Source: a virus. From it: DNA of 64,000 nt. A model generated the notes under the pieces. The model was given only the letters and a program-made list of their open reading frames with translations, was not told the origin of the DNA and made no database searches. Each line of letters starts with the position of its first letter. Position 1 is the first letter of the stretch. The stretch spans positions 1-64,000 of the IMG/VR virus record IMGVR_UViG_3300034954_001540. The stretch is one strand, 5' to 3'. Below, one piece after another: positions 411 through 62,695 of this stretch. The position numbers and the translations under genes are program-made.

Positions 411-3400
411 ATGCCTGCTTATCTCCAAGAGTCTGCTCGGAGTTTTCCTAATCCCATTTCGGGAGAAGAGTATAATACAATCTGGAAAAGACCATCTAGT
501 GGAGACTATGAAAGTCACTCCTCTGGTAACGGACTTGGCACGGGCACAGACTATTTCATTACCTTTGAGGGTAGCGGACCTGGCTCCTATCCTCTGGGGA
601 AAGATGCTGTACACTATATCGGTGATCAAGAAGAGACCTGCATAGCAAACTGCGGATATACCCGTGCGCCAGTATACAGATGGTATCGCGGAGCAAAGCG
701 CGATCACAAGTATACAAAGAAACCTGAGATGATCGAGGCAGATGCAGGTTGTGAGAATGAATCGTGGAAGAAGATATCAAGTGGATACAATCATGAGCCT
801 AGGAAAGGCACTCCATACTTCTTCTGTCTAGATCGTCAGCAAGAAGGTGCTGTGCCACTTGTTATGTGGTATTCGTATTGGCCTGACAACTGTGTGTTAG
901 TTGCTGGCACTGGTAACCCACCTGGCGTTAATACAGGTTGCGGGAAAGGAAAGTATTATAAGTGTTACACCCTTGGATATATCTTCACCAATCTATCTGA
1001 TGCACAGGAGTATGGTGATGATGCTGTGCCTCTGTATCACTACCGCTATGGTAGTCAGAGTGCTAGTAAGGGTAAAGATATTGATGACTTCTATACAATC
1101 AACCCTGCTGGTGAGGTCAATCTAGAGGATAACCCTATTCCTTGTAGGAAACCCATGGATAGGGAATACCAGTATCAGGGTATCATTGGGTATGTCTACC
1201 CTGCAGACGCCCCCTCAGCGCCTCAGCAGCAGGTTATAGACGTTGGTAGGATTGGTCCTACTGGTCAGTGTGTAGATAAGACTGGTTGGTATGAGTTTGA
1301 TGACGAGACTGGACCATTTAACTGGAGAGTATACAACCGAGGAGGGTATCCTGGTGGTTATCCTAACGGTCCTGCAGGTGCAACGCCTGGTGTTATCGGT
1401 TTTGGTAACCCAGACAACGCTGAAATCATAAGTGCAGAGGCAAACTTTGAGTGGGCATACGGTCTTAACGGTGCAATCAAGGGAGCAGTGCCTCGTTTCT
1501 TAGGATTTGAGGATTCTTATGACTCACAATTCTATTATTATCTCTACGATACGACATATCCTTGGAATGGACCGCTGTTTGGCATTCAGTATGAGCTGAA
1601 TGACATCCCCTGCTGCCCTAATACTACTTGTAATGACGAGACTAGCGAGAGACCTAGACCCTGTTGTATCCCCAACGAGCATTTCTACTCCCATTTCTAT
1701 CAAATTAGACAAGACTCATGGGAGACTACTAAGACTAGATGTGTTTTGACTGATACATCTACCAATGGAGTTAACGAATCCTTTGAAACTATTGACACAG
1801 ACAGTCCTAGAGTCCTGTTTAGATACACAACACGGACTGGTGACTTCAATAGAGGTGAGGAAATCAACGGTTGGAATATCGTTTCTGTCTTTTATTACGG
1901 TGATCAACTCAAATGCGGGTTGATGGAGCTAGAAGGCGGCAGTAATGCCTTCACTTATCTCCAACAATTCACCTCTACGGACGGTGGCACGGTAGAAATT
2001 CTTGCTGGATACGGCATTGCTAACAAATGTGCGTTTGCTGGTGTGTATGAATTCCCTAAAAGAGTGTCATATTACAAGGTTGAGCTCTCTCCGAAGGCAC
2101 TTGTGCCCAATCGTACTCTAGATGAGGCGAAACTTGAGGCAATTATCAACAACAAAGGCGGGATTTCCGAGGTTGAGATCGTCAATAGCGGACGTGGTTA
2201 CTCTAAAAACGCAAAAGTTACCGCAATTACACCAAAAGTCCTCAACAATTTCTCTCCTACAGACACTACAGAGCACTTAGATGACCTAATCCGCAAAGAT
2301 TACAACGCTGAAGAGGCGATTGGATTCACAGAATCGGAGTTTTCGGGTGATGACCCCATCAAAGATGTGCAAGTTGCGTATGGAACCTTCAGTGGTGCGA
2401 CAGAATTCCCCACTGATCACGATGGAATCGCATCTAAGCTCAAAGCTGCGACACTAGAGATCGCCGCATTCGACGAAATTGGCGGTATTAAGAAGATTAG
2501 AGTGATTGATGGCGGTAGTGGATACTCTCAGGAAGAGCCACCCGACGTGTTTATTAGCGATCCTGAGTATATTGAGTATGAAAGTCCCGACATTGGCGAC
2601 ATTGCTGCGCTTGGACAGGGTATTTCTGACCAGTTTGAGTTTATGAATGACGGTATTCCCGTGGGTGAGGACCAAGATCCTAACTCTTGGATCAATACTA
2701 ACACTGGAAATGACTTTGGTGGCGCACCTACACAGTTTCAGAGTCTAGGTACTACTGGTATTGGCTCTGCAACCTCTCCTAATCAGGTTGCAAACACGGG
2801 TTTCACCATTATGAATACACCTATTGCCTCCGCAGCACCTGATTCCTACATTAGAATGGCGGAGATTGATGAAGAGAATGAGACAAAACTGTGTTTTGAC
2901 CTACCACCTAACTGTTTAGAGGTAGATGGTCGCGGTAATGTGCTCGATGCTATACCAAAAGAGGACTTCTGGGAGTTGGTTAGCGGTGTAAGTCCTGGTG
3001 TACGTGAGTTTGAGTCGCAAGTTATGCCTCAAGTATACCAAGGAGCGAAGGCACTAGACGAATATCAAGAGCAAACGTCGCATGTTTACGGTCCTTTCAA
3101 CAAAGATCGCTGTTTGACCATGGGTCAACCCAAGATTTACAACATCAGACGTTGGTTTGACATGCCATGTGCCTATGTGAGCACCATAGAAAGGGGATCA
3201 CAGACTCTTGACATGATTGAAAAGGGTAGAAACCTCTCTGATGAGCGTGCTTTCGGTTATTTGCCTTACAAATACTGCGCTTCTAAGATCAAAGAGGCAG
3301 AATTTAACGTCAGTATCATGGTTGAAGGTAAAGTTATTGGATCTATGGGTGAAGATTTCATGGATTACATGGATTCTTTCACAAAACCCAAGGTTACACC

Positions 3401-4295
3401 GCGCAGAAAGGTGTCTGGTGGTTACAAAACGTGGAATTGCAACAACGGAGACGTTGATGGACGCTGTTATCGCGATCCTGGCGACCCAAATGACATTATT
3501 TTCGTCCCAGTGGGTCTAGATGAGAATACTTTTGACTATAACCGTAATGGTTTTAGTGAATATGAGCAATTTAGACTTTGGTTGGGTGATAATTTGACTG
3601 GTGGTGGTCTAACTTCTGCTCAAACGACGTTTAGTTGGGTTGATGATGAGACAACTACGACTACAGATGAGAATGGAAATACATCTTCTTCCACTCAGAG
3701 TTACGGTGGCACTAATAGCACAGCGTATACTGCATTCACTGTGGACTGTAGTCCTGATCCTGGCAGCACCAACGTGCCTAACCATGATTGTTGGGATAAG
3801 TATGTGCGTGCCTCAGGAGCGCCCTCAGATGCCCCTCTAGACGTTTATTGTGGTTGGGATGCATCTGGTAACCCAATGTCAGGAGAGCGTTTCTGGGAGA
3901 TCAGAGGACCCGCTAACGGCACGAATCCTAGTGGACACACAACACCTACTGGACCAGTGAATCCCTTCTGTGCTTCTTGTGGAGGATCTGGATATACTGG
4001 TGGTCTGGTTTGGAGTTATCTTGGCGGTGGCGGTGGACCTCCTGCTTGTGGTCTAAGTAGTGTTAATGATGCATCCATCGCTATTGACCCAACGAGGATA
4101 TATCAGAATTCTGATGGAGACAAAGCATTTAAGATGGGATCTTACAGTGGCACAATGCGTGTAAGGAATTGGTTGACTGGTGGTGTCCAAGCACTTAGCA
4201 ACTCTCTTAAAAACTTTGGTAACCCATATTTCTCTGAATGTGATGTTGCTCGCCCAGACGAGGCAGGTAAACGAATTAACCAAGAGTTTGAATAA
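411..4295 (+). CDS. Cys-rich virion structural protein (baseplate hub/tail region)
   Basis: 1294 aa. N-terminal PLY(R/H)Y...YT...GY(I/V) repeats (DUF5648-like). IVNSGRGY and VIDGGSGY repeats are shared with the other structural proteins. Lies directly upstream of the PAAR-like gene and gp25. Confidence 0.7.
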   Translation: MPAYLQESARSFPNPISGEEYNTIWKRPSSGDYESHSSGNGLGTGTDYFITFEGSGPGSYPLGKDAVHYIGDQEETCIANCGYTRAPVYRWYRGAKRDHKYTKKPEMIEADAGCENESWKKISSGYNHEPRKGTPYFFCLDRQQEGAVPLVMWYSYWPDNCVLVAGTGNPPGVNTGCGKGKYYKCYTLGYIFTNLSDAQEYGDDAVPLYHYRYGSQSASKGKDIDDFYTINPAGEVNLEDNPIPCRKPMDREYQYQGIIGYVYPADAPSAPQQQVIDVGRIGPTGQCVDKTGWYEFDDETGPFNWRVYNRGGYPGGYPNGPAGATPGVIGFGNPDNAEIISAEANFEWAYGLNGAIKGAVPRFLGFEDSYDSQFYYYLYDTTYPWNGPLFGIQYELNDIPCCPNTTCNDETSERPRPCCIPNEHFYSHFYQIRQDSWETTKTRCVLTDTSTNGVNESFETIDTDSPRVLFRYTTRTGDFNRGEEINGWNIVSVFYYGDQLKCGLMELEGGSNAFTYLQQFTSTDGGTVEILAGYGIANKCAFAGVYEFPKRVSYYKVELSPKALVPNRTLDEAKLEAIINNKGGISEVEIVNSGRGYSKNAKVTAITPKVLNNFSPTDTTEHLDDLIRKDYNAEEAIGFTESEFSGDDPIKDVQVAYGTFSGATEFPTDHDGIASKLKAATLEIAAFDEIGGIKKIRVIDGGSGYSQEEPPDVFISDPEYIEYESPDIGDIAALGQGISDQFEFMNDGIPVGEDQDPNSWINTNTGNDFGGAPTQFQSLGTTGIGSATSPNQVANTGFTIMNTPIASAAPDSYIRMAEIDEENETKLCFDLPPNCLEVDGRGNVLDAIPKEDFWELVSGVSPGVREFESQVMPQVYQGAKALDEYQEQTSHVYGPFNKDRCLTMGQPKIYNIRRWFDMPCAYVSTIERGSQTLDMIEKGRNLSDERAFGYLPYKYCASKIKEAEFNVSIMVEGKVIGSMGEDFMDYMDSFTKPKVTPRRKVSGGYKTWNCNNGDVDGRCYRDPGDPNDIIFVPVGLDENTFDYNRNGFSEYEQFRLWLGDNLTGGGLTSAQTTFSWVDDETTTTTDENGNTSSSTQSYGGTNSTAYTAFTVDCSPDPGSTNVPNHDCWDKYVRASGAPSDAPLDVYCGWDASGNPMSGERFWEIRGPANGTNPSGHTTPTGPVNPFCASCGGSGYTGGLVWSYLGGGGGPPACGLSSVNDASIAIDPTRIYQNSDGDKAFKMGSYSGTMRVRNWLTGGVQALSNSLKNFGNPYFSECDVARPDEAGKRINQEFE

Positions 4296-4828
4296 TGGCA
4301 TACGGATTTCTTAAACCAGTTGCATCACTGAATGGTCTGCCTTGCTCAGGTCATGGTCTTTGTTTGCCTTCTACTGTCCACTCAGTGCAAGCGTGTGGCA
4401 CCCCTCCAGTGCCCTACAGCATCGTCATTAAGAATTTTACATGTTGGTGGCCACCCACACCTCTAATTCCACTTTCAGCAATTAACCCAATTAGAGCAAC
4501 AGTGCTGGTGCAGTTTATCCCCATCATGATTGGTGGTGATACGTTTACCCCACACATCGCATTGTGTACAAACATTGTGATTTACATCTGCCCTTGTGGT
4601 AAGAGTATGTGTCCTATCCCCACACCTATTGCTTGTAGCATACTGACATCTGAGGACTTTGGTGGTGCAGGACATACTAGGGTCCTCTTCCCAACTACCC
4701 TGACAGTTTTTGCATTTAAGATCCCTATTGCGAGGATCCTAGACCCACTGGGTGTTGGTTTTCCAGGATTCTCATATCCATGCTCTTCGGTGGTTGCATT
4801 TGGGCACCCAACTGTGTTAGCATCATAG
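4295..4828 (+). CDS. PAAR-like baseplate spike-tip protein (T4 gp5.4 analogue)
   Basis: CSGHG near the N-terminus, TVLV...PIMIGGD-x-FTPH, GH-x-R, PIARILD and a C-terminal C...GHPTVL. Position upstream of gp25. Confidence 0.7.
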   Translation: MAYGFLKPVASLNGLPCSGHGLCLPSTVHSVQACGTPPVPYSIVIKNFTCWWPPTPLIPLSAINPIRATVLVQFIPIMIGGDTFTPHIALCTNIVIYICPCGKSMCPIPTPIACSILTSEDFGGAGHTRVLFPTTLTVFAFKIPIARILDPLGVGFPGFSYPCSSVVAFGHPTVLAS

Positions 4829-4847
4829 AGTAGTTTCAAAAAAGGTT

Positions 4848-4997
4848 ATGCCTGCAAAAGCAAAGACTGGTTTGGTAAAAGATGGTTGGCTTCCTGCTAG
4901 ACCCAAGGTAACTCGACAAGGGTCCTCTAAAAATACTAAATATTCGGCAACGTCCCGTAATAGTAAAGGTAAGCGTTATCGTGGTCAGGGTCGATGA
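4848..4997 (+). CDS. small basic hypothetical protein (49 aa)
   Basis: Not in the ORF track. Reads MPAKAKTGLVKDGW...SRNSKGKRYRGQGR and its stop overlaps the next ATG (ATGA). Confidence 0.7.
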   Translation: MPAKAKTGLVKDGWLPARPKVTRQGSSKNTKYSATSRNSKGKRYRGQGR

Positions 4998-5176
4998 GAC
5001 CCGAAACCCGAGAAGCGATGGAAATGCTTTGGAGTGCTAAGTGGAATCTTCCTAAAGCAGCGAAGCATTGTAATCTCACCAATAAAGAGATGAAGATTAC
5101 CTTTAACGAGTATTGTGCTTTCCATCCACCAACATATAGTTATGAAAAGGAAACTGAATTTCATCTCCCAAGATAA
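4994..5176 (+). CDS. small hypothetical protein, possibly helix-turn-helix
   Basis: 60 aa with WNLPKAAKHCNLT-x-KEM. Start coupled to the previous stop. CTAAATA at 4936-4942 upstream. Confidence 0.65.
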   Translation: MRPETREAMEMLWSAKWNLPKAAKHCNLTNKEMKITFNEYCAFHPPTYSYEKETEFHLPR

Positions 5177-5663
5177 AGAGATAGCACTAATTCAGGAAAT
5201 GATCTATAGGATTCAAATGGCGGATCCTGACATTCATCCTAAAAGGACCTGCTTCCTTTGTGTCTCACCTGACTATTCAAGTGTCGTGGCTCAACATCTG
5301 AGCCATGCCCTGAGTAAAGATGGTGAGATTTACCACATAGAAGCAGTAAATGTCCCTTTCCCAGACGAATCACATGAGTCTTATCTTGAGACATTCATTG
5401 ATCGATTCTCGGAATGGACAATCGACTGGGACAACTTTGTATTGATTGAGGCAGGTGTCATCAGAGGTGGCAACTACACTTGGATCACTGAGGCAATGAA
5501 TAAGTATCAGATATACGGTGATCGCCCCAACTACACTGTTGCTCTCTGCGAAAACACTGGAAGCAAATTCAAATCAGATTTTGTTTCTCATTATTATGAC
5601 AATTCCAAGGAAGATTTACACTTCTGGTGGGAACGTCCTAACAACCATTGGGAATGCCCATAA
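5142..5663 (+). CDS. phosphoribosyltransferase-fold protein
   Basis: Likely start is the ATG at 5142. FVLIEAGVIRGGNY resembles the type I PRTase PRPP loop, and the C-terminal SDFV...LHFWWE resembles HPRT/XPRT ends. Confidence 0.55.
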   Translation: MKRKLNFISQDKEIALIQEMIYRIQMADPDIHPKRTCFLCVSPDYSSVVAQHLSHALSKDGEIYHIEAVNVPFPDESHESYLETFIDRFSEWTIDWDNFVLIEAGVIRGGNYTWITEAMNKYQIYGDRPNYTVALCENTGSKFKSDFVSHYYDNSKEDLHFWWERPNNHWECP

Positions 5664-5666
5664 ATA
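5660..5666 (+). promoter_or_regulatory. putative late promoter (ATAAATA)
   Basis: Motif overlaps the stop of the previous ORF, upstream of the GTG at 5691. Confidence 0.55.
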
Positions 5667-5690
5667 AAAATACCGTGTGGAGGAAGAAAA

Positions 5691-5837
5691 GTGGCTAACA
5701 GTCCTGTGCCTGATCAGAGTGCTGATTTCATTAAGTCGGGGATGGTGCTAATAACCGACCCTCGCAGTGATAAATACCTTCATAAGGTGAATCGTAATGT
5801 CCGCCCACCTGAGAGACAAAAGAAAAAAGAGGGTTAA
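5691..5837 (+). CDS. small hypothetical protein (48 aa)
   Basis: GTG start after GGAGG. Reads MANSPVPDQSADFIKSGMVLITDPRSDKYL... and its stop abuts the gp25 ATG. Confidence 0.6.
   Translation: MANSPVPDQSADFIKSGMVLITDPRSDKYLHKVNRNVRPPERQKKKEG
5770..5776 (+). promoter_or_regulatory. putative late promoter for gp25 (ATAAATA)
   Basis: Motif about 60 nt upstream of the gp25 start. Confidence 0.5.
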
Positions 5838-6251
5838 ATGCCTGCTTACAGATTTAGATCAGACCAATACGTCAGTAGAGGATTTAAGGATTTAGCAATT
5901 TCCTTTAATGCCAATCCCTCTACTGACGATTTTGGTGCTGTTAAGAATGAGAGAGCGATCAATCAATCTGTAAGAAATTTATTATTGACTATATTAGGTG
6001 AAAGACCATTTCAACCCAACATCGGGAGTCGGGTGAAAGGTCTTCTTTTTGAGCCATGGGATCCATTCTCTAAAGATGCGATCAAAACTGAAATCAAAGA
6101 TTGTCTCGGAAGACTTGAGCCACGAATCACTGTCCAAGATGTCCGTATTCGTGACAACAGTGATTTGAATGAAATTCAAGTTGAGCTCGAATATAAGATT
6201 ACGGGTGAGAATACTACCCAAGAAGTAACATTCCTCTTAGAGAAGACCTGA
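5838..6251 (+). CDS. g25: baseplate wedge subunit gp25
   Basis: AINQSVRNLLLTILGERPFQPNIGS...LFEP...EPRI is the GPW/gp25 signature. Confidence 0.93.
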   Translation: MPAYRFRSDQYVSRGFKDLAISFNANPSTDDFGAVKNERAINQSVRNLLLTILGERPFQPNIGSRVKGLLFEPWDPFSKDAIKTEIKDCLGRLEPRITVQDVRIRDNSDLNEIQVELEYKITGENTTQEVTFLLEKT

Positions 6252-6252
6252 A

Positions 6253-8415: not shown

Positions 8416-8420
8416 GATAG

Positions 8421-44759: not shown

Positions 44760-44766
44760 ATAAATA
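44760..44766 (+). promoter_or_regulatory. putative late promoter (ATAAATA)
   Basis: Directly after the terminator and upstream of the fibre gene. Confidence 0.75.
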
Positions 44767-44807
44767 AGTCAGACAGACTAACTGTTGTGCTAGGATCCTT
44801 TTAAGCA

Positions 44808-51812: not shown

Positions 51813-51818
51813 TAACTA

Positions 51819-52622: not shown

Positions 52623-52623
52623 T

Positions 52624-54711: not shown

Positions 54712-54735
54712 TAATCGTAGGAGTACGTATTAACA

Positions 54736-55269
54736 ATGTCAGTATTAAATGTCCTTGACACCCAAACTATTTCAGGAAGTGGCACTGGCTACGTCGTAGT
54801 GAAATCGGGTGTTGTCCGCTGCTATGCAGCATCCGCGTCTTCGATTCAATTTGACGCTGGTCCTGCGATCACTTTGGCAGCAGGTGAAGCATTGCTCCTC
54901 TCCGTGGGTAAAGCAAAGAATGCATCTATCAGTGCAGGCACAAACGCTGCTACTAGCGTGTTGACCGTATTGGGTGGTGGCACCCCCGCACACAGGTTTG
55001 TCGTTGGCGATTATATTCAGACCGCTGCAAATGGAGACACCGCTTTTACGAGTGATTTTGTTTCTGCAGCATCTGCTGGTAAGAAGGTAACTGCTGTTTC
55101 CGATACCACTATCACCACCGATATTGATGCGTCTGGTGCAGGAGGTAACTATGCATTATCTGAAGCCGATGTCATTGCTGGGACCGTCCCAGTATTGCAG
55201 CGAGCAGTCAAACTCACCGCTGGATCTGCCGACGTTGTTGTCGAGCAAGTCCAAGTCGTCGGAGGATGA
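54736..55269 (+). CDS. hypothetical beta-rich protein, probably virion-associated
   Basis: 177 aa, Ala/Gly/Ser/Thr/Val-rich, with a late-promoter motif upstream. Confidence 0.7.
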   Translation: MSVLNVLDTQTISGSGTGYVVVKSGVVRCYAASASSIQFDAGPAITLAAGEALLLSVGKAKNASISAGTNAATSVLTVLGGGTPAHRFVVGDYIQTAANGDTAFTSDFVSAASAGKKVTAVSDTTITTDIDASGAGGNYALSEADVIAGTVPVLQRAVKLTAGSADVVVEQVQVVGG

Positions 55270-55272
55270 CGA

Positions 55273-57567
55273 ATGCCAGCAGTCTCAAGAGCCCAACAAA
55301 GATTCTTCGGGATGGTTAGAGCGGCTCAAAAGGGGGATCTCAAATCGCCGTCGCCACAGGTTCAAAGAACTGCTGCCAGCATAAAGAAAAAGGATGCTAA
55401 GGATTTTGCATCCACCAAACATAAAGGTTTACCAGAGAAAAAAATGAAATCTTTTTCCGAAATGCAACACATCCCTGAAGAGGGATATGATCACTGGCGT
55501 GATAAGCAACTTGAGAAGTATGGCTCAGGTTATAGATCTGCAGGTAGTCGCCGCAGTGTTGCAAGGTCTGGTGGGACGCAACCAAAACCCATGCCTAAGA
55601 AGAAAGAGGGTGGTGACTCTGCTCTTGACTATGTGAAGAAGTCCATCGAAGCAAAGTATGGCAAGGGTGCCATCATGGATACTTCTAAGAAAAAGAATGA
55701 AGAGGTTGTAACTGAGAAGAAGAAAGGTCTCTGGGACAACATTCACGCTAAGAGAAAGCGTGGTGAGAAACCTGCTAAGCCTGGTGATAAAGATTATCCT
55801 AAGACTCTCAACGTCGAAGGTTATGATAAACCAGACGAGAAGTTGAAGACTGATCGGGATATGTTTAACATCCCTAAGGAAAAGCAGAATGCTGCAAAGG
55901 AGCGTCTTCTCGCTAAAGCAAAAGCAAAGCGTGCAAAACTGAAAGAAGATGTTTGGGATCAGGTTGACATCTTTGCAGAGATGAATGACTGGGAGATCTC
56001 ACTCCTTAATGATACTATTATCGAAGATATCATTACTGATGTCTTCATCGAAGAATTACAAGAAGGTAGAGATATTGATAGCGTCACAGATATGCTCTGT
56101 GAGTCTGTTGATTACTCTCTTAATCTCTTGACAGAAGTATCAGATAAGTATTATGATAGTGCTGTTGCTTCTTCTAAAGCAGCAAGCAGGACTCCTGAAG
56201 TAAAGGCTGCTAACCGCAGACAAAAACTTGAAAAGGTTAAGAGTGCTGCTAAGAAGGTTGGATCTGCACTGAAGTCTGGTCTTAAGACTGGCGCTAAACT
56301 TGCACGCAAAGGTGCTGTTAAGGGTGCTGAAGTTGCTGGTAAGGCAGCAGGTCACGCGAAAAATCTCGCGAAAGACATGGGTAGTGCCGCTAAGAAAGGT
56401 TACCAGTCCACTCAAAAGGACTCATCTTCTAGCGACTCTGATTCCTCCTCTTCTTCTTCCTCATCTTCATCCTCCTCTTCTTCTAGCGAGTCCAAGCCTA
56501 AGAAGCCTGGTCTGCTCAGCAGAATTGGTAGCAAACTGAAGCGTGGTATCAAGAAGGCAGTTGGTGCTGGTGCAAGAGCTCTCTCCCGTGGCGCACGCAA
56601 TGTTGCACGCCGTCTGGGTGAAGAGACTCTCCTAGAGAAAGGAATGTCCGAGAAGGATATGGATTCTGCTCTTAAGGGTCACAAGTACAGTAAGAAGCAA
56701 CTCATGGACATGAGTAAGAAGTCTACTAAAGAAGGTAGACACGGTGAAGCACAGTCCATGTATAAGGCTGCCCGTGCCATGAAGGAAGACACCATCAATG
56801 AGCGTGGTGATTTCTGGCATCCTGATCCTGAGAAGGATCGTAAACTGGGTGGTCCTGGCGCTAACCAGCGTGCTCGTGAAGATCGTGCTGCTGCATCTAA
56901 ACCTGCTGCTAAGAAGGAAGATCCTAAGAAACTGCGTAAGGGTGAGTCCTACATGGACTATGCCAAGCGTCAGCCAGGTTACAAAGCACCCGCTAAGAAA
57001 GAAGGTTTGCGTGACAAGATCAAGCGTAAGCTTGGTTTGAAGAGAGAGGAAGTCGAAGTCCTTTCTTTCAATGCATATCTCTCAGAGGGTAACCGCACTG
57101 GTCGTATGATGCAGAAGTCCAAGACTCAGGTCACTGGACACATCTCTGCTGACAGGGGGTCCGACGAAAAAAAGAATCGTGAGGGTCGTAAGTCTCTAGA
57201 GAAGGATCTCAAGAAGCATGGCATCGGTCACAAGAAAGGTGTCGGTGAGTATAAGTATGACAGTGGAGAAACTGGCCGAGAAGTTTCCTATCAGACTTCA
57301 AAACCTGATAAGATGTCAAAACGCCGTTTCGGAAAGGTCATGCGTCGCATGGGACGCAAGCACGGGCAAGAATCCGTGATCACTAAAGACAAAGACAAAC
57401 CTGCAAAATTGCATTATACTGAGAAAGGTAGTAAAGCAAAATCCGATAGTATCGGAAAGACTAAGGCAGGTAAGCATCCCGAAGGTTATGGTGAAACTTC
57501 TGGCACCAAAGTCAGAGGTGGTAAGCTTCCCAAGAAAACTAACAAATCATCTTATCATTATGGCTGA
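55273..57567 (+). CDS. Lys-rich modular protein, putative capsid-internal polyprotein with C-terminal SAM-lyase-like domain
   Basis: 764 aa. Short modules are separated by hydrophobic-x-E sites, and there is a poly-Ser tract. The last about 160 aa carry SADR, G-x-Y, E-x-S and QESV motifs. Confidence 0.6.
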   Translation: MPAVSRAQQRFFGMVRAAQKGDLKSPSPQVQRTAASIKKKDAKDFASTKHKGLPEKKMKSFSEMQHIPEEGYDHWRDKQLEKYGSGYRSAGSRRSVARSGGTQPKPMPKKKEGGDSALDYVKKSIEAKYGKGAIMDTSKKKNEEVVTEKKKGLWDNIHAKRKRGEKPAKPGDKDYPKTLNVEGYDKPDEKLKTDRDMFNIPKEKQNAAKERLLAKAKAKRAKLKEDVWDQVDIFAEMNDWEISLLNDTIIEDIITDVFIEELQEGRDIDSVTDMLCESVDYSLNLLTEVSDKYYDSAVASSKAASRTPEVKAANRRQKLEKVKSAAKKVGSALKSGLKTGAKLARKGAVKGAEVAGKAAGHAKNLAKDMGSAAKKGYQSTQKDSSSSDSDSSSSSSSSSSSSSSSESKPKKPGLLSRIGSKLKRGIKKAVGAGARALSRGARNVARRLGEETLLEKGMSEKDMDSALKGHKYSKKQLMDMSKKSTKEGRHGEAQSMYKAARAMKEDTINERGDFWHPDPEKDRKLGGPGANQRAREDRAAASKPAAKKEDPKKLRKGESYMDYAKRQPGYKAPAKKEGLRDKIKRKLGLKREEVEVLSFNAYLSEGNRTGRMMQKSKTQVTGHISADRGSDEKKNREGRKSLEKDLKKHGIGHKKGVGEYKYDSGETGREVSYQTSKPDKMSKRRFGKVMRRMGRKHGQESVITKDKDKPAKLHYTEKGSKAKSDSIGKTKAGKHPEGYGETSGTKVRGGKLPKKTNKSSYHYG
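56419..56487 (+). repeat. poly-serine (TCN-rich) low-complexity tract
   Basis: Encodes DSSSSDSDSSSSSSSSSSSSSSS with mixed TCT/TCC/TCA codons. Confidence 0.9.
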
Positions 57568-57688
57568 AGAAAAACGCAAGTGTAAGTATTGTGGCATCAC
57601 TGCCCCTCTTGGGCATCACCGTCCTACCACATGGATGGAGAAGCACGAGTTGAATTGTGCCAGAAACCCTAAGAATAAAGAAGAATGA
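57560..57688 (+). CDS. small zinc-finger-like protein (42 aa)
   Basis: CKYC...HELNC pattern. Overlaps both neighbours. Confidence 0.6.
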   Translation: MAEEKRKCKYCGITAPLGHHRPTTWMEKHELNCARNPKNKEE

Positions 57689-58158
57689 AATCCTTTTCCC
57701 AATTCGTAGCAGAGCAAGACAACGTAGATGAAGCCGTTGGTCTAGCAATCGCGAGAGCGATTGATAAGACTAATCCCCCATTGGGTAGACCTTCTAGACG
57801 TAGAGATCTTTCTCATGCTCTGAAGATGAGGGAGGTGCTTAAAGGTGCCAAGAAGAGGAAGGATGATAAGAAAAAATCTCCTGTTAATTTCATGCAGGAT
57901 AAGAAAGAAACAAATGAAGACTGGCAGAAAAAGTCAGGCAAAAACCCTGAAGGCGGATTAAATGAAAAAGGTAGAAAGTCGTATGAGCGTGAAAACCCAG
58001 GAAGCGATCTTAAGGCACCTTCAAAAAAAGTTGGGAACCCTCGTAGAGCGAGCTTTTGTGCGCGAATGAAAGGGATGAAGAGGAAACTCACATCTAAGAA
58101 GACAGCGAGCGATCCTGATAGTAGAATTAACAAATCACTTAGAGCTTGGAATTGTTGA
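57685..58158 (+). CDS. DUF6321-like basic protein with MKSF-type leader
   Basis: WQKKSGKNPEGGLNEKGRKSY...GSDLKAP...RRASFCARM...SLRAWNC. Confidence 0.75.
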   Translation: MKSFSQFVAEQDNVDEAVGLAIARAIDKTNPPLGRPSRRRDLSHALKMREVLKGAKKRKDDKKKSPVNFMQDKKETNEDWQKKSGKNPEGGLNEKGRKSYERENPGSDLKAPSKKVGNPRRASFCARMKGMKRKLTSKKTASDPDSRINKSLRAWNC

Positions 58159-58169
58159 GGTATTAGATT

Positions 58170-58466
58170 ATGTCAAACGATAAGGAGTTCTCTGACTTTA
58201 AGTTGGAGAGGAAGGAGTGTGAGAAGTGTGGTGCAACTTGGATTAACGGACAACATGTCTGGAGGGGCACAGGTGCTCAGACAAAGGACAGTGAGTTAGA
58301 TCTTGCTGGTCTAGTCTGCAATAAACTTGGCAATCATCAGTGCATCAATCCTAAGAAAGGAGAGGATGGTGGACAGACTTGGGAGTATCGTGCTGGATAT
58401 ATTGATGGTCTGATTAGAGGTAAAACAGACACTATGAAAGAGTTAGGAAAGCTTGACAATTCATAG
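58170..58466 (+). CDS. conserved cyanophage-type hypothetical protein (Cys motifs)
   Basis: CEKCGATWINGQH-x-W...DLAGLVCN...CINP. Confidence 0.75.
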   Translation: MSNDKEFSDFKLERKECEKCGATWINGQHVWRGTGAQTKDSELDLAGLVCNKLGNHQCINPKKGEDGGQTWEYRAGYIDGLIRGKTDTMKELGKLDNS

Positions 58467-58513
58467 TATTACTACCTAAAAACGTAGCTATATAAGGCAG
58501 TTAGTAACAAGGT

Positions 58514-58837
58514 ATGAAGTTTCTAATTGCTTTTTTCGCTTCAATTTTTCTCGCTGCTCCAGCGTTTGCCGTCGATGTCCAAATGGGATACGACGGTAAT
58601 CTTGTATTTGAGCCTGCCGAGGTTACAATCTCCGCTGGAGAATCAGTCCATTTCGTCAACAACATGTTGCCACCTCACAACGTTATTGTAGAGGATCATC
58701 CTGAATTGGGTCATGAAGCCCTTGCAATGATGCCTGGTGAGGAGTTTGATGTTGCATTTCCTGAAGCAGGGGTGTATACTTATTGGTGCGGTCCCCATAA
58801 AGGGGCTGGTATGATAGGCACTGTAACCGTTGAATAA
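58514..58837 (+). CDS. petE: plastocyanin
   Basis: Signal peptide ending PAFA, LVFEP, PPHN and YWCGPHKGAGM (His/Cys/His/Met copper ligands). Confidence 0.97.
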   Translation: MKFLIAFFASIFLAAPAFAVDVQMGYDGNLVFEPAEVTISAGESVHFVNNMLPPHNVIVEDHPELGHEALAMMPGEEFDVAFPEAGVYTYWCGPHKGAGMIGTVTVE

Positions 58838-59493
58838 TGAAAATCTTTTTAGATACTGCTGATGTCTCTGAAATTAAAAAGGCATACAGCACAGGTTTGA
58901 TTGATGGAGTAACAACAAACCCGACACTGATTTTGAGATCGGGGGATACACTTTATAATGTAGCATCAAGACTACTTAAAGAATGTCCAGACTTTATCAG
59001 CGTCTCCACGGAGGTGGTTGCAGAGACAGCTGACGAAATGATTGAGCAAGCAAAAACTTATTTTCCACTAGGTGATGCAGTTACAATCAAAGTCCCTTGC
59101 ACTGTTGAGGGACTGAAAGCATGTAAGATCCTTTCGGATCAAGGCGTCAAGGTCAATGTAACTCTCATCTTCTCAGTGGCACAAGCATTGTTGGCAGCAA
59201 AGGCAGGGGCAGCATATGTCTCTCCCTTTGTTGGTCGCTGCAATGACAACTCATTTAGTGGAGTTGAGTTGGTCCGTGCAATCGCTAATGCATTTAGTGT
59301 GCAGATGATGACCACTGAAATCCTCGCAGCATCACTGCGAGATGTCCATCACGTTTCTCGCTGCTACACATATGGTGCGAGTGTTGTGACTATGCCACCT
59401 AAGGTATTCTGGAAAATGTATGATCATGTGTTGACTAGAGAGGGACTTGATCTTTTCCAAAAAGATTGGGAATCTGCTAATGCAAACACTTAA
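58837..59493 (+). CDS. talC: transaldolase (TalC/FSA-type fold)
   Basis: IFLDTAD, GVTTNP, Schiff-base Lys in TIKVP, NVTLIFS and YVSPFVGR. Glu in STEV and Phe in SPF favour transaldolase over FSA. Confidence 0.95.
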   Translation: MKIFLDTADVSEIKKAYSTGLIDGVTTNPTLILRSGDTLYNVASRLLKECPDFISVSTEVVAETADEMIEQAKTYFPLGDAVTIKVPCTVEGLKACKILSDQGVKVNVTLIFSVAQALLAAKAGAAYVSPFVGRCNDNSFSGVELVRAIANAFSVQMMTTEILAASLRDVHHVSRCYTYGASVVTMPPKVFWKMYDHVLTREGLDLFQKDWESANANT

Positions 59494-59983
59494 TAAATTC
59501 GCAATCGCGATAAGTATCGGTATCCTTGACTTCCTTTATGAAGGTAGGGATTACCAACGTTTCTGGGTGCTTGAGGAAATTGCTCGCGCACCCTATTTTG
59601 CTTTCCTAAGTGTGTTACATCTTCGTGAAAGCATGGGACTTCGTGGTCCTGACCATCTATATTTGATGAAGCAGCACTTCGAGCAGAGCGTCAATGAAAC
59701 TGAGCATCTGGAGTATATGGAAAGTCGGCACGGTAATCGTTATTGGATCGATCGCTTTGTTGCCCGACACCTCGTACTCCTATATTATTGGATCAACGTG
59801 GCTTATTACTGGTTGGCTCCTCGCGCTGCATACCATCTGTCATATGAAATAGAAATCCATGCGGCAACTACATACGGTAAGTATATTGCAAAGAATGGGA
59901 AGGATGAAAAGATCCTTGAGATCTTAAATGATGAATTGCACCACTCAACAGAATTGAAAGAAGCTATGGAGATGATTAAATGA
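59480..59983 (+). CDS. ptoX: plastoquinol terminal oxidase
   Basis: ATG at 59480. RFWVLEEIARAPYFAF, NETEHL, EIHAATTY and DELHH are the di-iron carboxylate motifs. Confidence 0.95.
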   Translation: MQTLNKFAIAISIGILDFLYEGRDYQRFWVLEEIARAPYFAFLSVLHLRESMGLRGPDHLYLMKQHFEQSVNETEHLEYMESRHGNRYWIDRFVARHLVLLYYWINVAYYWLAPRAAYHLSYEIEIHAATTYGKYIAKNGKDEKILEILNDELHHSTELKEAMEMIK

Positions 59984-61038
59984 AAGTAGGACTTATCGGT
60001 CTCGGACGTATGGGCGAGGGTATGTCTCGCCGTATGATGGCAGCAGGTCATGAAGTCTGGGGATATCGTCGCAACCTAAAGAAAGCAGAAGAGGCATACG
60101 AAAAAGGGTATGTCAGTGGCATCGCTTATGGACTGCAGCAACTGTCTGAAGTAGTGCATAGAGGGACTTCCATTTATGGAGAGAAGTCTGGAGAAACTGT
60201 CTATAAACCAGCAGTTTTTATGATGGTTATTCCAGCAGAATTAGTCGAGGACACACTCAATGAGTTACTACAGTTTTGTAACGAGGGAGATATTATTGTT
60301 GATCATGGCAATAGTAATTTTAAGGATAGCAGGAGGAGGGCAGAGAAACTTGCTAAACTGGGTATCCAATACATTGACTGTGGCACTAGCGGTGGTGTTT
60401 ACGGTTTGGAGCGTGGATACTGTCTTATGGTTGGTGGTACAGATACTGCAGTATCCGTCTGCTCTCCACTCTTTAATGCACTCGCACCAGGAATTGCTGC
60501 TGCCCCACGCACCCGCGATGGCGACTTCGTTAGGCAGTCTGAGTTAGGATGGTTGAGATGTGGTGGTCCTGGTGCAGGACACTTCACTAAGATGGTCCAC
60601 AATGGTGTTGAATATGGCATTATGCAAGCATATGCAGAGGGTTTTAATATCCTTAAAGAGGCTAATGCAGGAAGAGCTTATGTTGCTGAGGGTGATGCCG
60701 AGGTGGCTCCCATGGAATGCCCCGAGGATTATTGCTACGACATTGATGTACCTGAGGTTGCTGAGCTATGGCGTCGCGGTAGCGTGGTTGGGTCTTGGTT
60801 ACTTGATCTTAGTGCGGATGTATTATACGGCAATGGTGAGCTTGATAAGTTTGACGGCGGTGTCTCCGATAGTGGGGAAGGTCGTTGGACTGTGCATACC
60901 GCTGTGGACCTTGGCGTACCCGCCCCTGTATTATCTGCAGCGTTATATGAAAGATTCACTTCCCGTGGTCTAGGGAAGTATGCAAATAAAATCCTTAACG
61001 GGATGCGTTACATGTTTGGAGGACACAACGTACGATGA
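59980..61038 (+). CDS. gnd: 6-phosphogluconate dehydrogenase (short form)
   Basis: GLGRMG, DHGNS, DCGTSGG, GAGHFTKMVHNGVEYG, DSGEGRW and FGGH. Confidence 0.97.
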   Translation: MKVGLIGLGRMGEGMSRRMMAAGHEVWGYRRNLKKAEEAYEKGYVSGIAYGLQQLSEVVHRGTSIYGEKSGETVYKPAVFMMVIPAELVEDTLNELLQFCNEGDIIVDHGNSNFKDSRRRAEKLAKLGIQYIDCGTSGGVYGLERGYCLMVGGTDTAVSVCSPLFNALAPGIAAAPRTRDGDFVRQSELGWLRCGGPGAGHFTKMVHNGVEYGIMQAYAEGFNILKEANAGRAYVAEGDAEVAPMECPEDYCYDIDVPEVAELWRRGSVVGSWLLDLSADVLYGNGELDKFDGGVSDSGEGRWTVHTAVDLGVPAPVLSAALYERFTSRGLGKYANKILNGMRYMFGGHNVR

Positions 61039-61262
61039 AACAAACTGAGTCAAATACTCAACTTCTAGAGAGGTTTGAAAAAAGAATCAAACAACTCTCA
61101 GAAGAGCAAGGCAAACTTGATGTTGCCTACCAACGGTGGTTGGAATTGGATGTGATGCTGAATCGTCTGGAAGGATCGAAGCAAGCGATTGAATATCTGG
61201 AGTATGGTAGACTCCCTAATGATGGTCAGCACACTGGCATGGAGGATCATGCACCTAGGTGA
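61035..61262 (+). CDS. hypothetical coiled-coil protein
   Basis: 75 aa, coupled to the gnd stop. RLEGSKQAIEYL resembles the end of the 44480 protein. Confidence 0.65.
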   Translation: MKQTESNTQLLERFEKRIKQLSEEQGKLDVAYQRWLELDVMLNRLEGSKQAIEYLEYGRLPNDGQHTGMEDHAPR

Positions 61263-61380
61263 CTTCTTACTTTGGATCTCAATACCCTTTGTATGTGCCA
61301 CCATCACATTTGGAAGACTTAAAGGTGAAAATGACTATTACGAAACTGACAAATATGACGGAAACGGCACCGCTCACTAG
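61249..61380 (+). CDS. small membrane protein (43 aa)
   Basis: ATG at 61249 after GGAGG. Hydrophobic N-terminus, then KGENDYYETDKYDGNGTAH. Confidence 0.6.
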   Translation: MHLGDFLLWISIPFVCATITFGRLKGENDYYETDKYDGNGTAH

Positions 61381-62695
61381 GGGCATTGTTATCTTCGGAG
61401 CAACGGGAGACCTATGCAAGAAGAAACTAATCCCCGCACTATACAAACTCTGGCAGAAGGAATTGCTGCCAGAGAATTTTCTTATCACTGGAAGTGCTAG
61501 GAGAGAGCCTACTACACAGATGTGGAAGGAATCTCTTGGTGACTATCCAGATGATTTTTTACAGAATTTAGACTACCAATGTGCTGATCTGGAGAATGTA
61601 GAGTCTCTTAGGAATCTCCCAGCATACATTGATGACATGACATATTTCCTCTCAGTCCCACCTGAGAGATATGCTGCAGCAATTCAAAATCTAAAGGAGG
61701 CAGGTTGCCTTGAAGACCCAGAAAGATCCCGTGTGGTTGTGGAGAAACCCTTTGGGCACGATTATAAATCTGCTCATCATCTACAGTCAGTGGTGGAGCG
61801 ACATCTACGCGAAAAACAAATTTATCGCATTGACCATTATCTCGGTAAAGATACTGTTAATAACATTATCACCACTCGCTTTGGTAATATTCTACTGGAG
61901 CCGCTATGGAATAGGGACTATGTAGAAGAGATTCAGATCTTTGCATCCGAGACAATCGGATGTGAGGGTAGATCACAATACTATGAAACCGCAGGTGCAG
62001 TAAGGGACATGCTGCAAAACCATATCCTGCAAGTGTTGGCACTCATTGCCATGGAGCCACCTGTCAAAATGAATGCTAGGGAACTCAGACGTGAGAAGAC
62101 AAAACTATTGTCCGCAACTAGACTTTCCACAGATGTTATCTTAGGTCAATATGAATCCTATAAATCTGAAGACGGTGTTGATCCTAGGAGTCACACTCCT
62201 ACCTATTTTGCTGGCACTCTATTCATCGATAACTGGCGTTGGTCGGGAGTACCTTTTCGTGTCATGACAGGTAAGCAACTACCCTATGCATGTGTTGAGG
62301 TAGTTGTTAAACTCAAGACACCCACTATTCAACTGTACGAGGGGGAGCATGGAGATCGCATTGTCATTAGGCTTCAGCCTAATCCTCATCTGGATATTCG
62401 CATGGATATGAAAACGCCAGGTTTGACAAACTTAGTTGAGCACGCTACACTTACCTATGATTACCCTCAAGAGAGGGCGATTGATGGTTATGAAAAACTG
62501 CTCTACGACGCTATCGAAGGAGATCAAAGTCACTTTATCCATGCTGATGAGGTCATGGAGTCATGGCGCATCGTTGATGATCTTCTTTGCACTGGTGATT
62601 CTTGTCCTATTCGTACAACCCCTTATCTATATAAAGGAGGATGGGGTCCACAATACAAAGTAGATTTCATTACCAACTGGGATTATCCACAATGA
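61355..62695 (+). CDS. zwf: glucose-6-phosphate 1-dehydrogenase
   Basis: Likely start is the ATG at 61355. IFGATGDL, EKPFG, RIDHYLGK and RDMLQNH. Confidence 0.97.
   Translation: MTETAPLTRGIVIFGATGDLCKKKLIPALYKLWQKELLPENFLITGSARREPTTQMWKESLGDYPDDFLQNLDYQCADLENVESLRNLPAYIDDMTYFLSVPPERYAAAIQNLKEAGCLEDPERSRVVVEKPFGHDYKSAHHLQSVVERHLREKQIYRIDHYLGKDTVNNIITTRFGNILLEPLWNRDYVEEIQIFASETIGCEGRSQYYETAGAVRDMLQNHILQVLALIAMEPPVKMNARELRREKTKLLSATRLSTDVILGQYESYKSEDGVDPRSHTPTYFAGTLFIDNWRWSGVPFRVMTGKQLPYACVEVVVKLKTPTIQLYEGEHGDRIVIRLQPNPHLDIRMDMKTPGLTNLVEHATLTYDYPQERAIDGYEKLLYDAIEGDQSHFIHADEVMESWRIVDDLLCTGDSCPIRTTPYLYKGGWGPQYKVDFITNWDYPQ

Follow-up and report, generated by a model that had tools for sequence, protein, structure and literature searches.

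Avoidance of GAAC/GTTC and GTAC in marine T4-like cyanophages follows a putative phage-borne restriction–modification gene pair

The DNA discussed here, called the window, is a stretch of 64,000 nucleotides (positions 1 to 64,000 of the IMG/VR record IMGVR_UViG_3300034954_001540) within an 80.9-kb contig that belongs to a marine T4-like cyanophage of the P-TIM40 clade. The window holds a baseplate region with a giant virion structural gene and, further downstream, a block of host-like metabolic genes (Table 1). When the zwf gene was used as a query against genome contigs, the only match was a contig of cyanophage-like character that had been assigned to a planctomycete MAG.

Table 1. Features of the window and their content of the avoided words (observed versus expected counts, or observed/expected ratio, O/E)
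Feature	Position	Strand	Observation
Window-wide purge	1..64000	.	GAAC/GTTC 31 vs ~525 expected; GTAC 54 vs ~216; GATC 432
Baseplate and giant structural gene region	1..52000	+	Most strongly purged: GAAC/GTTC O/E 0.05, GTAC O/E 0.20
1294-aa gene	411..4295	+	Protein 99% identical to a gene on IMGVR_UViG_3300037847_005284
Giant structural gene of the virion (7295 aa), homologous to P-TIM40 gp099	8421..30308	+	11 GAAC/GTTC and 10 GTAC in 21.9 kb
Host-like metabolic block: plastocyanin (petE), transaldolase talC, PTOX, gnd, zwf	58514..62695	+	GAAC/GTTC 1 vs 30; GTAC 8 vs 10

The most conspicuous property of this DNA is the near-absence of the words GAAC and GTTC and the scarcity of GTAC, while GATC is kept. 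The original prediction had described this pattern from hand counts in two short intervals, which proved exact (1 GAAC, 0 GTTC, 1 GTAC and 8 GATC in 12001-13200; GAAC, GTTC and GTAC all absent from 47041-48000). Under a second-order Markov model, the window contains 20 GAAC against 277 expected, 11 GTTC against 249, 54 GTAC against 216 and 432 GATC against 457, and 4-kb bins over its whole length have from 0 to 4 GAAC/GTTC sites each. The same holds for the whole contig, where the combined count of GAAC and GTTC is 55, with about 635-667 expected; with the strands pooled, the values are 55 versus 667 for GAAC/GTTC (O/E 0.08, z -23.7) and 70 versus 269 for GTAC (O/E 0.26, z -12.1), the latter expectation ranging from about 250 to 300 across models. 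The contig is also low in CCGG (0 sites), GGCC, RGCY, CAATTG and ATTAAT. The claim that the talC/PTOX stretch shares the bias held for GAAC/GTTC and failed for GTAC, which is not purged in the metabolic block (Table 1).

The contribution of codon usage was evaluated by 100 synonymous-codon shuffles that preserved the proteins and the codon usage of each gene. Compared with these, GAAC was found 35 times (307±14 expected), GTTC 18 times (328±14) and GTAC 65 times (300±13), corresponding to O/E values of 0.05-0.11 for the first two words and 0.22 for GTAC, with z of about -19 to -23, whereas GATC was at 533 (411±15). Since the depletion persists under both the shuffles and the Markov models, codon usage and di- or trinucleotide content are not its cause. 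A longer recognition site was ruled out as well, because 5-mers containing GAAC or GTAC are depleted in every context and no pair-specific 5-mer exceeds them. Thus, about 90% of the GAAC/GTTC sites and 75% of the GTAC sites have been removed through synonymous codon choice, which supports selection on the DNA words themselves.

Further support for this view was provided by the codon contexts, most of which come from the 7295-aa structural gene and in which all the shifts named in the original prediction were recovered. Glycine before threonine is encoded by GGC 202 times and by GGT 19 times, whereas elsewhere GGT dominates (1295 versus 236 for GGC); before the TCN serine codons, GGA is used 92 times and GGT twice. 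Glutamate before a codon that starts with C is GAG in 169 cases and GAA in 10, and valine before C is GTT in only 10 of 235. After a codon ending in G, asparagine is AAT rather than AAC (197 versus 12), phenylalanine is TTT rather than TTC (176 versus 6) and tyrosine is TAT rather than TAC (180 versus 18). The corresponding controls for GATC, namely the isoleucine codon ATC after G and the aspartate codon GAT before C, are unshifted. The changes that avoid the words thus affect each of the four positions and each codon phase (GGT to GGC, GAA to GAG, AAC to AAT). Among close relatives, substitutions that create GWAC number 142 against 235±15 expected, a deficit in the direction expected of selection against the word but a crude count to which little weight is given, as it uses single-change contexts and counts sites repeatedly across relatives.

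Comparison with related cyanophages revealed that the purge is not a general trait of cyanomyoviruses. Purged genomes are this contig and the other members of the P-TIM40 clade and, separate from these, Syn9, S-MbCM6, S-H35/S-RIM4 and S-MS29. Among 60 metagenomic TerL loci, the GAAC/GTTC O/E is bimodal, with values of 0.05-0.35 or 1.1-1.6 and few between, and a quick TerL tree places the purge at two separate points, one being the clade of P-TIM40 and the record G000, the other Syn9 with loci L053, L054 and L070; the groups beside both purged clades are unpurged. The purge is therefore lineage-specific, and its distribution matches that of a gene pair borne by the phages.

The first member of the pair encodes a putative nuclease of about 200 aa, hereafter the nuclease, whose gene overlaps that of a PF01555 methyltransferase in P-TIM40, in the complete relative G001 and in IMGVR_UViG_3300037847_005284. 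The methylase belongs to the N6_N4_Mtase family (E 4e-41 to 4e-40), is of the beta-class N6/N4 type and carries the motif TSPPY, which we take to suggest N4-methylcytosine. The nuclease family, represented by gp059 of P-TIM40 and gp61 of Syn9, is found in only 17 of 50,697 phage records (P-TIM40, S-MbCM6/25, S-MS29, Syn9/Syn10, S-H35 and S-RIM4), and in all 17 of these isolate records it adjoins the methylase (76-78% identity). The pair is absent from the 80.9-kb contig, which CheckV rates as 45% complete. A related contig, IMGVR_UViG_3300037847_005284, has DNA 98.2% identical to window positions 369-10180 and carries an intact nuclease and methylase at its own positions 10016-10621 and 10536-11441, about 11.8 kb upstream of the point that matches base 1 of the window and hence beyond the 5' end of this contig. 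Judging from this 98%-identical relative, the phage studied here probably has the pair too.

All six carrier lineages whose genomes were analysed are purged, with O/E values of 0.03-0.29 for GAAC/GTTC and 0.15-0.44 for GTAC. Conversely, a whole-record profile search, of the same kind as that which detected the positive controls, found no member of the nuclease family in six unpurged isolates (S-WAM1, S-SZBM1, P-RSM6, S-ShM2, S-SSM4 and S-SM1; GAAC/GTTC 1.01-1.30). Two complete records behave in the same way: G001 has the pair and an O/E of 0.21, and G005, which lacks it in a protein search, has 1.16. Hence 6 of 6 lineages with the pair are purged and 7 of 7 without it (the six isolates and G005) are not, and each of the 27 metagenomic loci recovered by searching with the nuclease gene shows the GAAC/GTTC purge (0.00-0.28). 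When 453 kb from carriers were compared with 257 kb from phages treated as pair-free, the clearest contrasts were those of GAAC/GTTC (ratio 0.09) and GTAC (0.24), the size of which is partly built in because 6 of the 10 pair-free loci had been picked for being unpurged; in the same comparison, both sets have almost no CCGG, and for GGCC and RGCY the carriers are only modestly lower (0.68-0.76). Behind this association stands a small number of independent evolutionary contrasts, no fewer than two according to the quick TerL tree, and the carriers fall into four ICTV genera, with S-MS29 unassigned.

The purges of GTAC and of GAAC/GTTC are not always coupled. GTAC is kept despite the GAAC/GTTC purge in four metagenomic loci (L007, L008, L053 and L139), as in the metabolic block of this contig, and S-SM1, which is without the pair, has 0 GTAC against 80 expected, so that part of the GTAC signal may have another source.

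The structure of the nuclease was modeled with AlphaFold2. An alignment of 12 close sequences gave a poor model (pLDDT 59.6), and an alignment of 57 sequences, used instead, gave a pLDDT of 94.4 and a pTM of 0.90. A D-x8-E-x-K motif lies on the adjacent strands 83-87 and 90-98 of this model, and its residues are conserved among the 57 diverse homologues (D84 in 55, E93 in 51 and K95 in 55). In Foldseek searches the top matches are nearly all type II restriction enzymes, NaeI being first (E 3e-3, probability 0.98-0.99), followed by EcoRV, ThaI, PvuII and DpnI. Likewise, the best 11 matches of VIA-align are all restriction enzymes, among them NaeI (Z 9.8), BglI and ThaI (both 7.4), DpnI (7.2), SwaI (7.1) and SfiI (7.0). 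These scores are moderate, as the Foldseek E value is about 3e-3 and Z exceeds 8 for NaeI alone, and on this footing the model assigns the protein a restriction-endonuclease fold with a PD-(D/E)XK catalytic motif. The family had no match in Pfam at E values up to 10 and nothing meaningful in the PDB by sequence and profile searches; the 66 representatives and the 10 clusters sampled consist throughout of metagenomic proteins without a name, and a related-locus search with a distant member (P0113) returned none. The family is widespread in marine viral contigs, where it forms 103 clusters at 90% identity, some present on more than 50 contigs, and its carriers span several cyanophage genera. No description of this purge or of this enzyme in cyanophages was found in a literature search.

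Taken together, we consider it rather probable, on an argument from correlation, that GAAC/GTTC and, less strictly, GTAC (jointly GWAC) are selected against because the lineage carries its own type II restriction–modification pair. The specificity is read only from the purge of the carriers and would be GAAC/GTTC, whether GTAC is included or not, and we infer likewise that the protein cleaves DNA, that GWAC is its site, that the adjoining methylase is cognate and that the enzyme is used as follows. The nuclease would be produced during infection and would cut unmodified GWAC-type sites in the DNA of the host and perhaps of co-infecting phages. The methylase would give the fast-replicating DNA of the phage itself part of its protection, and the near-absence of sites would give most of it; a new GAAC/GTTC site would then be a liability, to be removed by synonymous codon choice. 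GATC would be retained because it is not a target or because the Dam-family methylase, frequent in these phages, covers it. Some considerations speak against attributing the purge to the phage's own enzyme. A cognate and efficient methylase should make a 10-fold purge needless, and GAAC/GTTC is not palindromic, whereas a symmetric site would be the more natural one for a small EcoRV/NaeI-type enzyme paired with a single small methylase. To our knowledge, no restriction enzyme has GAAC/GTTC specificity.

The classical explanation for such a loss is avoidance driven by the host, and this is where the original prediction had placed the pressure, as a defence of Dnd or other type acting on GWWC-like sites. 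A host restriction or Dnd/Ssp system would target GAAC/GTTC (and GTAC), and the phage pair would be a captured copy or a counter-measure marking the same niche and not the cause. Dnd modifies only a minority of its consensus sites, and we know neither of GTAC as a Dnd consensus nor of cleavage by DndFGH at Dnd consensus sites. The phosphorothioate consensus of Escherichia coli B7A and Salmonella Cerro 87, GpsAAC/GpsTTC (PMC4507180, PMC6459556), matches GAAC/GTTC but not the co-purged GTAC. Moreover, host-driven avoidance clearly operates here for CCGG, GGCC and RGCY, depleted with or without the pair, and the main natural hosts may differ from the laboratory isolation hosts. However, phages of the same host differ: among those of Prochlorococcus NATL2A, P-TIM40 has an O/E of 0.03-0.11 and P-RSM6 of 1.09, and among those linked to Synechococcus WH8102, S-H35 (0.17), Syn9 (0.15-0.29) and P-TIM40 are purged and S-ShM2 (1.25) is not (PMC6708340). 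The purge instead follows the phage gene without exception in the lineages and metagenomic loci listed above, and none of the papers listed by a literature search brings up Prochlorococcus alongside phosphorothioation or dndFGH. Because the purge appears among relatives only with the phage-borne pair, an enzyme of the phage itself is the probable source of the pressure rather than a phosphorothioate system of the host, and we regard host defence as unlikely. A nuclease that reads GWWC-like sites and leaves GATC alone thus survives from the original prediction as the likely agent, and its assignment to the host is not supported. Still less probable is a role of the pair in competition between phages, in which site loss would protect against the same enzyme in co-infecting relatives or resident elements, pair and site loss forming one strategy and self-cutting not being the main cost. 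The abundance of the family makes co-infection with a carrier plausible, yet pair-free phages that share hosts with carriers show no purge (O/E 1.0-1.3), which is unexpected if attack by carriers is strong and general. Mutational decay, by which methylation by the phage enzyme would make the modified base more mutable and let the word erode without selection, would account for the co-occurrence of purge and methylase gene, but the sites have been lost through changes at each of their positions, as selection on the word would produce and deamination of one methylated base would not, and a 10-fold depletion has been reached with the amino-acid sequences kept. The modification suggested by TSPPY, presumably N4-methylcytosine, is not known to us as strongly mutagenic, and we give this process hardly any chance.

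The retention of GATC bears on a further alternative. The original prediction had GATC spared by a phage Dam-like enzyme, and Dam-family proteins (PF02086, E 2e-31 to 6e-32) indeed occur in P-TIM40, G001 and Syn9, all three complete pair-carrying relatives tested, while none was found in the 80.9-kb contig, 45% complete. However, the unpurged, pair-free G005 also has PF02086, and GATC is at or above expectation (O/E 1.05-1.5) in most cyanomyoviruses, purged or unpurged. Its retention is therefore the default state and not a special sparing, so that Dam is a weak explanation. The same enzyme is central to the idea that the phage nuclease reads GWWC, a self-complementary pattern for which one methylase would cover both strands, with GATC blocked by the phage Dam. 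A symmetric site of this kind better fits a small EcoRV/NaeI-type enzyme with a single methylase than GAAC alone does, Dam is present in the three relatives, and three loci of the clade of this contig (L009, L014 and L016, on short contigs) have lost GATC too (0.00-0.20), as expected if Dam were lost. Against it, a model of independent half-sites predicts a purge of GAAC between those of GTAC and GATC, whereas the purge is strongest for GAAC and varies for GTAC; in another locus (L059) GATC is purged though GAAC is normal. We judge this reading improbable.

In its broader form, selection by the phage's own enzyme leads to a proposal that we offer tentatively, as a possibility not quite reaching an even chance. 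Several genera of marine T4-like cyanophages, including Syn9 and P-TIM40, would share small type II restriction endonucleases of an uncharacterised family with a predicted asymmetric GAAC/GTTC site, relaxed to GWAC, and would use them to attack the DNA of hosts or rivals, and self-protection would be achieved chiefly by genome-wide site loss and not by methylation alone. If true, ecologically important ocean viruses carry their own restriction enzyme, whose cost is written genome-wide in codon choice. This would offer a concrete candidate for host-DNA destruction by cyanophages without the modified bases of T4, and a restriction specificity that is probably new (GAAC/GTTC or GWAC), possibly useful as a reagent. 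It would also mean that word avoidance in a phage is not automatically the footprint of a host defence, which bears on host prediction and on the inference of defences from viromes. The reading can be tested directly with Syn9 and P-TIM40 in culture.

Among known systems, the nuclease is closest in structure to the EcoRV-like branch of PD-(D/E)XK enzymes (NaeI, EcoRV, PvuII, ThaI and DpnI), which provide the best matches (NaeI with Z 9.8 and an rmsd of 3.7 over 155 residues) and share the D...ExK arrangement on adjacent strands. It differs from them in sequence, with an identity of 7-14%, and a fold match alone proves neither nuclease activity nor specificity. With Dnd there is in common the identical non-palindromic pair of 4-bp words, GAAC/GTTC; opposite to Dnd, GTAC is co-purged, the associated protein is of the PD-(D/E)XK restriction type next to a methylase and not DndFGH or SspE, and no dnd genes were seen in the phage records examined. 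Chloroviruses encode restriction–modification systems such as R.CviQI/M.CviQI (GTAC), CviJI (RGCY) and CviAII, which are used to degrade host DNA. Like them, the cyanophages are lytic viruses of a phototroph with a small type II nuclease and a methylase, GTAC is involved and host DNA is the presumed target. The chloroviruses, however, protect themselves by heavy methylation, and we know of no report of site purging in them. Host-driven site avoidance in phages was reportedly described by Sharp in 1986, by Bancroft and Smith for Anabaena/Nostoc cyanophages and in a survey by Rusinov et al. in 2018. Short words are lost there by synonymous choice, as for CCGG, GGCC, RGCY, CAATTG and ATTAAT in this contig, whereas the purge of GAAC/GTTC and GTAC tracks a phage gene and is absent from pair-free phages of the same hosts. 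The closest parallel is the avoidance of restriction sites in genomes that carry the system, an effect that Gelfand and Koonin (1997), Rocha et al. (2001) and Rusinov et al. (2015) are said to have reported. In both cases a genome with genes for a type II restriction-type nuclease and a methylase has far fewer copies of a short word than its composition and codon usage predict. In the cyanophages, however, the carrier is a virulent T4-like phage and not a bacterium, the avoided words are a non-palindromic 4-mer, GAAC/GTTC, together with GTAC, with the specificity deduced from the purge, and the purge, about 10-fold, is much deeper than in the typical bacterial case.

The depletion of GAAC/GTTC and of GTAC extends along the whole 80,864-bp viral contig (G000; 45% complete by CheckV), of which the window is the first 64 kb. 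With both strands pooled and a maximal-order Markov model, GAAC/GTTC occurs 55 times in the contig against 667 expected and GTAC 70 times against 269. GATC is not depleted, with 432 observed versus 457 expected in the window (second-order model) and 548 versus 389 in the contig (first-order model). The same picture emerged when synonymous codons were permuted within each gene, a procedure that keeps every protein and the codon usage of each gene: GAAC was found 35 times versus 307 ± 14, GTTC 18 times versus 328 ± 14 and GTAC 65 times versus 300 ± 13, whereas GATC was slightly enriched (533 versus 411).

The avoidance is visible in codon choice. Glycine before threonine is encoded by GGC 202 times and by GGT 19 times, whereas GGT dominates elsewhere; glutamate before a codon starting with C is GAG 169 times and GAA 10 times; and, after a codon ending in G, the ratios AAT:AAC, TTT:TTC and TAT:TAC are 197:12, 176:6 and 180:18, respectively. 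The matching codon contexts of GATC show no shift. Furthermore, every 5-mer context is depleted, so that the avoided words are true 4-mers. The hand counts behind the original prediction were exact on recount, and each of its codon-context claims was borne out by these tables; the depletion persists after control for composition and is not explained by a longer site.

The window contains the structural module of a T4-like cyanomyovirus (see table). The giant structural genes show the deepest depletion, with an observed/expected ratio (O/E) for GAAC/GTTC of 0.05, and the scaffold and capsid genes beyond the window show the shallowest. Of the 55 GAAC/GTTC sites left in the contig, nine lie in the scaffold and major capsid genes, at densities of 4.8 and 2.9 per kb, respectively, versus about 0.4 per kb in other regions; possible reasons are that codon choice is strongly constrained there or that recombination with unpurged phages has occurred. 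The C-terminal part of a 764-aa protein gave a borderline match to the S-adenosylmethionine (SAM) lyase family PF23780 (28.6 bits versus a cutoff of 28, E 1.5e-6); such a putative domain for SAM degradation would merit a closer look, as the phage is also predicted to rely on a methylase that uses SAM.

Features of the contig, its relatives and the gene pair
Feature	Coordinates	Record and remarks
gp25 and gp6 baseplate genes		Window
7295-aa virion protein	8421-30308	Window; further giant structural genes besides
Neck genes and small terminase subunit		Window
764-aa protein, borderline PF23780 match	55273-57567 (+)	Window; match at residues 624-732
Host-like genes: plastocyanin, transaldolase, PTOX, gnd, zwf	58514-62695	Window
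TerL, tail sheath, portal and capsid genes		G000, just past the window end
Scaffold (gp22-like) and major capsid (gp23-like) genes	72990-75431	G000 (L001:10990-13431)
Intact nuclease gene (putative)	10016-10621	L109; overlaps the methylase gene
PF01555 methylase gene	10536-11441	L109; overlaps the nuclease gene
Second PF01555 methylase	51559-52470	P-TIM40 (L087:1559-2470)
Second PF01555 methylase	67654-68397	G001

The nearest isolate to the contig is cyanophage P-TIM40 (84.7% TerL identity), a generalist able to infect both Prochlorococcus NATL2A and Synechococcus WH8102 (PMC6708340). Its genome is purged throughout, with O/E of 0.03-0.11 for GAAC/GTTC and 0.15-0.29 for GTAC, whereas the next-nearest isolates by TerL, S-WAM1, S-SZBM1 and P-RSM6, are unpurged (1.07-1.19); P-RSM6 and P-TIM40 share their isolation host. 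Among 60 metagenomic loci found via TerL, the GAAC/GTTC ratio is bimodal: the closest relatives, together with a small number of other loci, have 0.05-0.35, and the remainder have 1.1-1.6, apart from four intermediate loci at 0.47-0.61 (L020, L029, L031 and L070). These four may either have lost the gene pair described below and be regaining sites, or have acquired it recently. A quick TerL tree placed the contig and P-TIM40 in one well-supported purged clade of 24 rows and Syn9, with L053, L054 and L070, in a second purged placement on the other side; the groups beside both are unpurged. One 24-kb contig assigned to a planctomycete MAG (L089, NZVD01000078.1, labelled "MAG: Rhodopirellula sp. 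isolate NAT69") has a zwf with 79% identity to the phage zwf, and its TerL nests among cyanomyoviruses; it is probably a mis-binned cyanophage contig.

The purge follows a pair of phage genes. In P-TIM40, gp059, encoding a 206-aa hypothetical protein, overlaps by 17 bases gp060, which encodes a PF01555 N6/N4 methyltransferase. A tblastn search of 50,697 phage records detected homologues of gp059 in only 17 (P-TIM40, S-MbCM6/25, S-MS29, Syn9/Syn10, S-H35 and S-RIM4), spread over four ICTV genera, with the S-MS29 record lacking a genus, and they always adjoin a 76-78%-identical methylase; the Syn9 member of the family is gp61. All five other carrier lineages, sampled over about 20-40 kb each, are purged (GAAC/GTTC 0.14-0.19, GTAC 0.20-0.36), and the TerL region of Syn9 has values of 0.29 and 0.44. 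Three further isolates without a family member are not purged of GAAC/GTTC (S-ShM2 1.25, S-SSM4 1.01, S-SM1 1.30). A family profile found no member in the whole records of these and the three unpurged isolates named above, and did find one in Syn9, S-MbCM6, S-H35 and S-MS29. Likewise, the pair is present in G001, a purged and complete 186-kb metagenomic relative, and was not found in G005, a complete, unpurged ACG-2014d-like record. Metagenomic loci selected for the nuclease gene are purged of GAAC/GTTC (0.00-0.28) in 19 of 19 P-TIM40-type and 8 of 8 S-H35-type cases. When 453 kb of sequence from pair carriers was set against 257 kb from phages taken to be pair-free, the clearest differences were those of GAAC/GTTC (ratio of O/E 0.09) and GTAC (0.24), a contrast whose size is partly built in, as 6 of the 10 pair-free loci were picked as unpurged.

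The contig itself begins just downstream of the position expected for the pair. A relative, IMGVR_UViG_3300037847_005284 (L109), whose DNA is 98.2% identical to window positions 369-10180, carries both genes about 11.8 kb upstream of its counterpart to window base 1, which strongly suggests that the phage studied here has the pair off the 5' end of the contig.

The putative nuclease has no sequence match in Pfam or the PDB, and its 66 relatives among 1.84 billion representative proteins are all unnamed. Aligning 57 of these relatives revealed a D-x8-E-x-K motif with nearly invariant residues (D84 in 55, E93 in 51 and K95 in 55 of the 57 sequences). An AlphaFold2 model built from the 57-sequence alignment was confident (pLDDT 94.4, pTM 0.90), and its best Foldseek matches in the PDB were nearly all type II restriction endonucleases, led by NaeI (E 3e-3, probability 0.98-0.99) and followed by EcoRV, ThaI, PvuII, DpnI and NhoI. 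An independent search with VIA-align returned restriction enzymes at ranks 1-11 (Z scores: NaeI 9.8, BglI 7.4, ThaI 7.4, DpnI 7.2, SwaI 7.1, SfiI 7.0). These scores, obtained with a predicted model, are moderate, yet mutually coherent and in line with the motif. The partner is a beta-class methylase with TSPPY as motif IV, and among solved structures it matches N4-cytosine methylases and M.MboIIA. Together, the features point to a type II restriction-modification pair whose cleavage and specificity are predicted.

We consider it fairly probable that the phage avoids the site of its own predicted enzyme. The nuclease would cut GAAC/GTTC-type sites in unmodified host DNA, and possibly in the DNA of competing phages; the phage genome would be safe chiefly through the near-absence of sites, and the methylase would cover those that remain. 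Degradation of cyanobacterial DNA after infection with Syn9 and P-TIM40 has been measured (PMC6708340). A mutational origin of the purge is unlikely, because all positions of the word took part in the changes that eliminated sites. The original prediction had proposed a nuclease acting on GWWC-like words, which the present results support, and had attributed it to a host defence, either Dnd-type or another nuclease, which they do not: phage isolates from the same host differ in purge status, and the purge follows the phage gene pair without exception in either direction, although across few independent contrasts. Restriction systems are, in addition, reported to be uncommon in marine picocyanobacteria (PMC6708340), which also argues against a purely host-driven pressure.

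A live alternative to avoidance of a GAAC/GTTC-type site is an enzyme with the symmetric site GWWC, whose action at GATC would be blocked by a Dam-family methylase. It is unusual for one methylase to serve a non-palindromic 4-mer, and a Dam-family methylase is encoded by P-TIM40, G001 and Syn9; however, one is also present in the unpurged G005. In its stated form, the original suggestion that Dam spares GATC is weak, since these phages retain GATC by default.

The exact recognition site of the putative nuclease is uncertain; GTAC can be uncoupled from GAAC/GTTC. In pair carriers GAAC/GTTC is always purged, and GTAC is purged on average; four loci (L007, L008, L053 and L139) and window positions 58514-62695 are purged of GAAC/GTTC with GTAC at or near expectation (0.77-1.08). 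Conversely, S-SM1 (L117, NC_015282.1 89928-121574), which has normal GAAC/GTTC and no nuclease-family member, has 0 GTAC versus 80 expected, indicating a separate GTAC-specific pressure among cyanomyoviruses; locus L041 was recorded alongside S-SM1 for GTAC loss. Thus, GTAC is either a weaker secondary target of the predicted enzyme, or its depletion derives partly from another system.

Other words, which the original prediction did not mention, are avoided as well. In the contig, CCGG is absent (about 98-155 expected), GGCC occurs 12 times versus 98, and the RGCY words AGCT and GGCT/AGCC are depleted 3- to 4-fold. Unlike GAAC/GTTC and GTAC, these words are low in almost all sampled cyanomyoviruses (L002-L145) with or without the pair, CCGG being near zero, and their depletion must therefore have a different, family-wide cause; in the carrier comparison both sets almost lacked CCGG, and carriers had only modestly lower GGCC and RGCY (0.68-0.76). 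Four hexamer palindromes are also lost, CAATTG (0 versus 35), ATTAAT (0 versus 25), GACGTC (0 versus 16) and GTGCAC (1 versus 15, all codon-shuffle expectations). P-TIM40 has only the CAATTG loss, and the ATTAAT loss is common to the closest relatives L109, L110, L112, L119 and L128; these purges are young and sub-lineage-specific. A second PF01555 methylase is encoded by P-TIM40 and G001 and is absent from Syn9, the same distribution as that of the CAATTG purge among the three, so a link is possible. GATC is nearly gone (O/E 0.00-0.20) from L009, L014 and L016 of the contig's own clade, whose relatives have an excess, and from L059, in which GAAC is normal.

A literature search found no paper describing this purge or enzyme in cyanophages. 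Avoidance of restriction sites, self-avoidance in carriers of restriction systems and virus-borne restriction systems, such as those of chloroviruses, are known phenomena. Several aspects look new: a virulent T4-like phage combines these phenomena, the purge is unusually deep, the predicted enzyme belongs to an uncharacterized family, and its specificity, as deduced from the purge, is probably novel.
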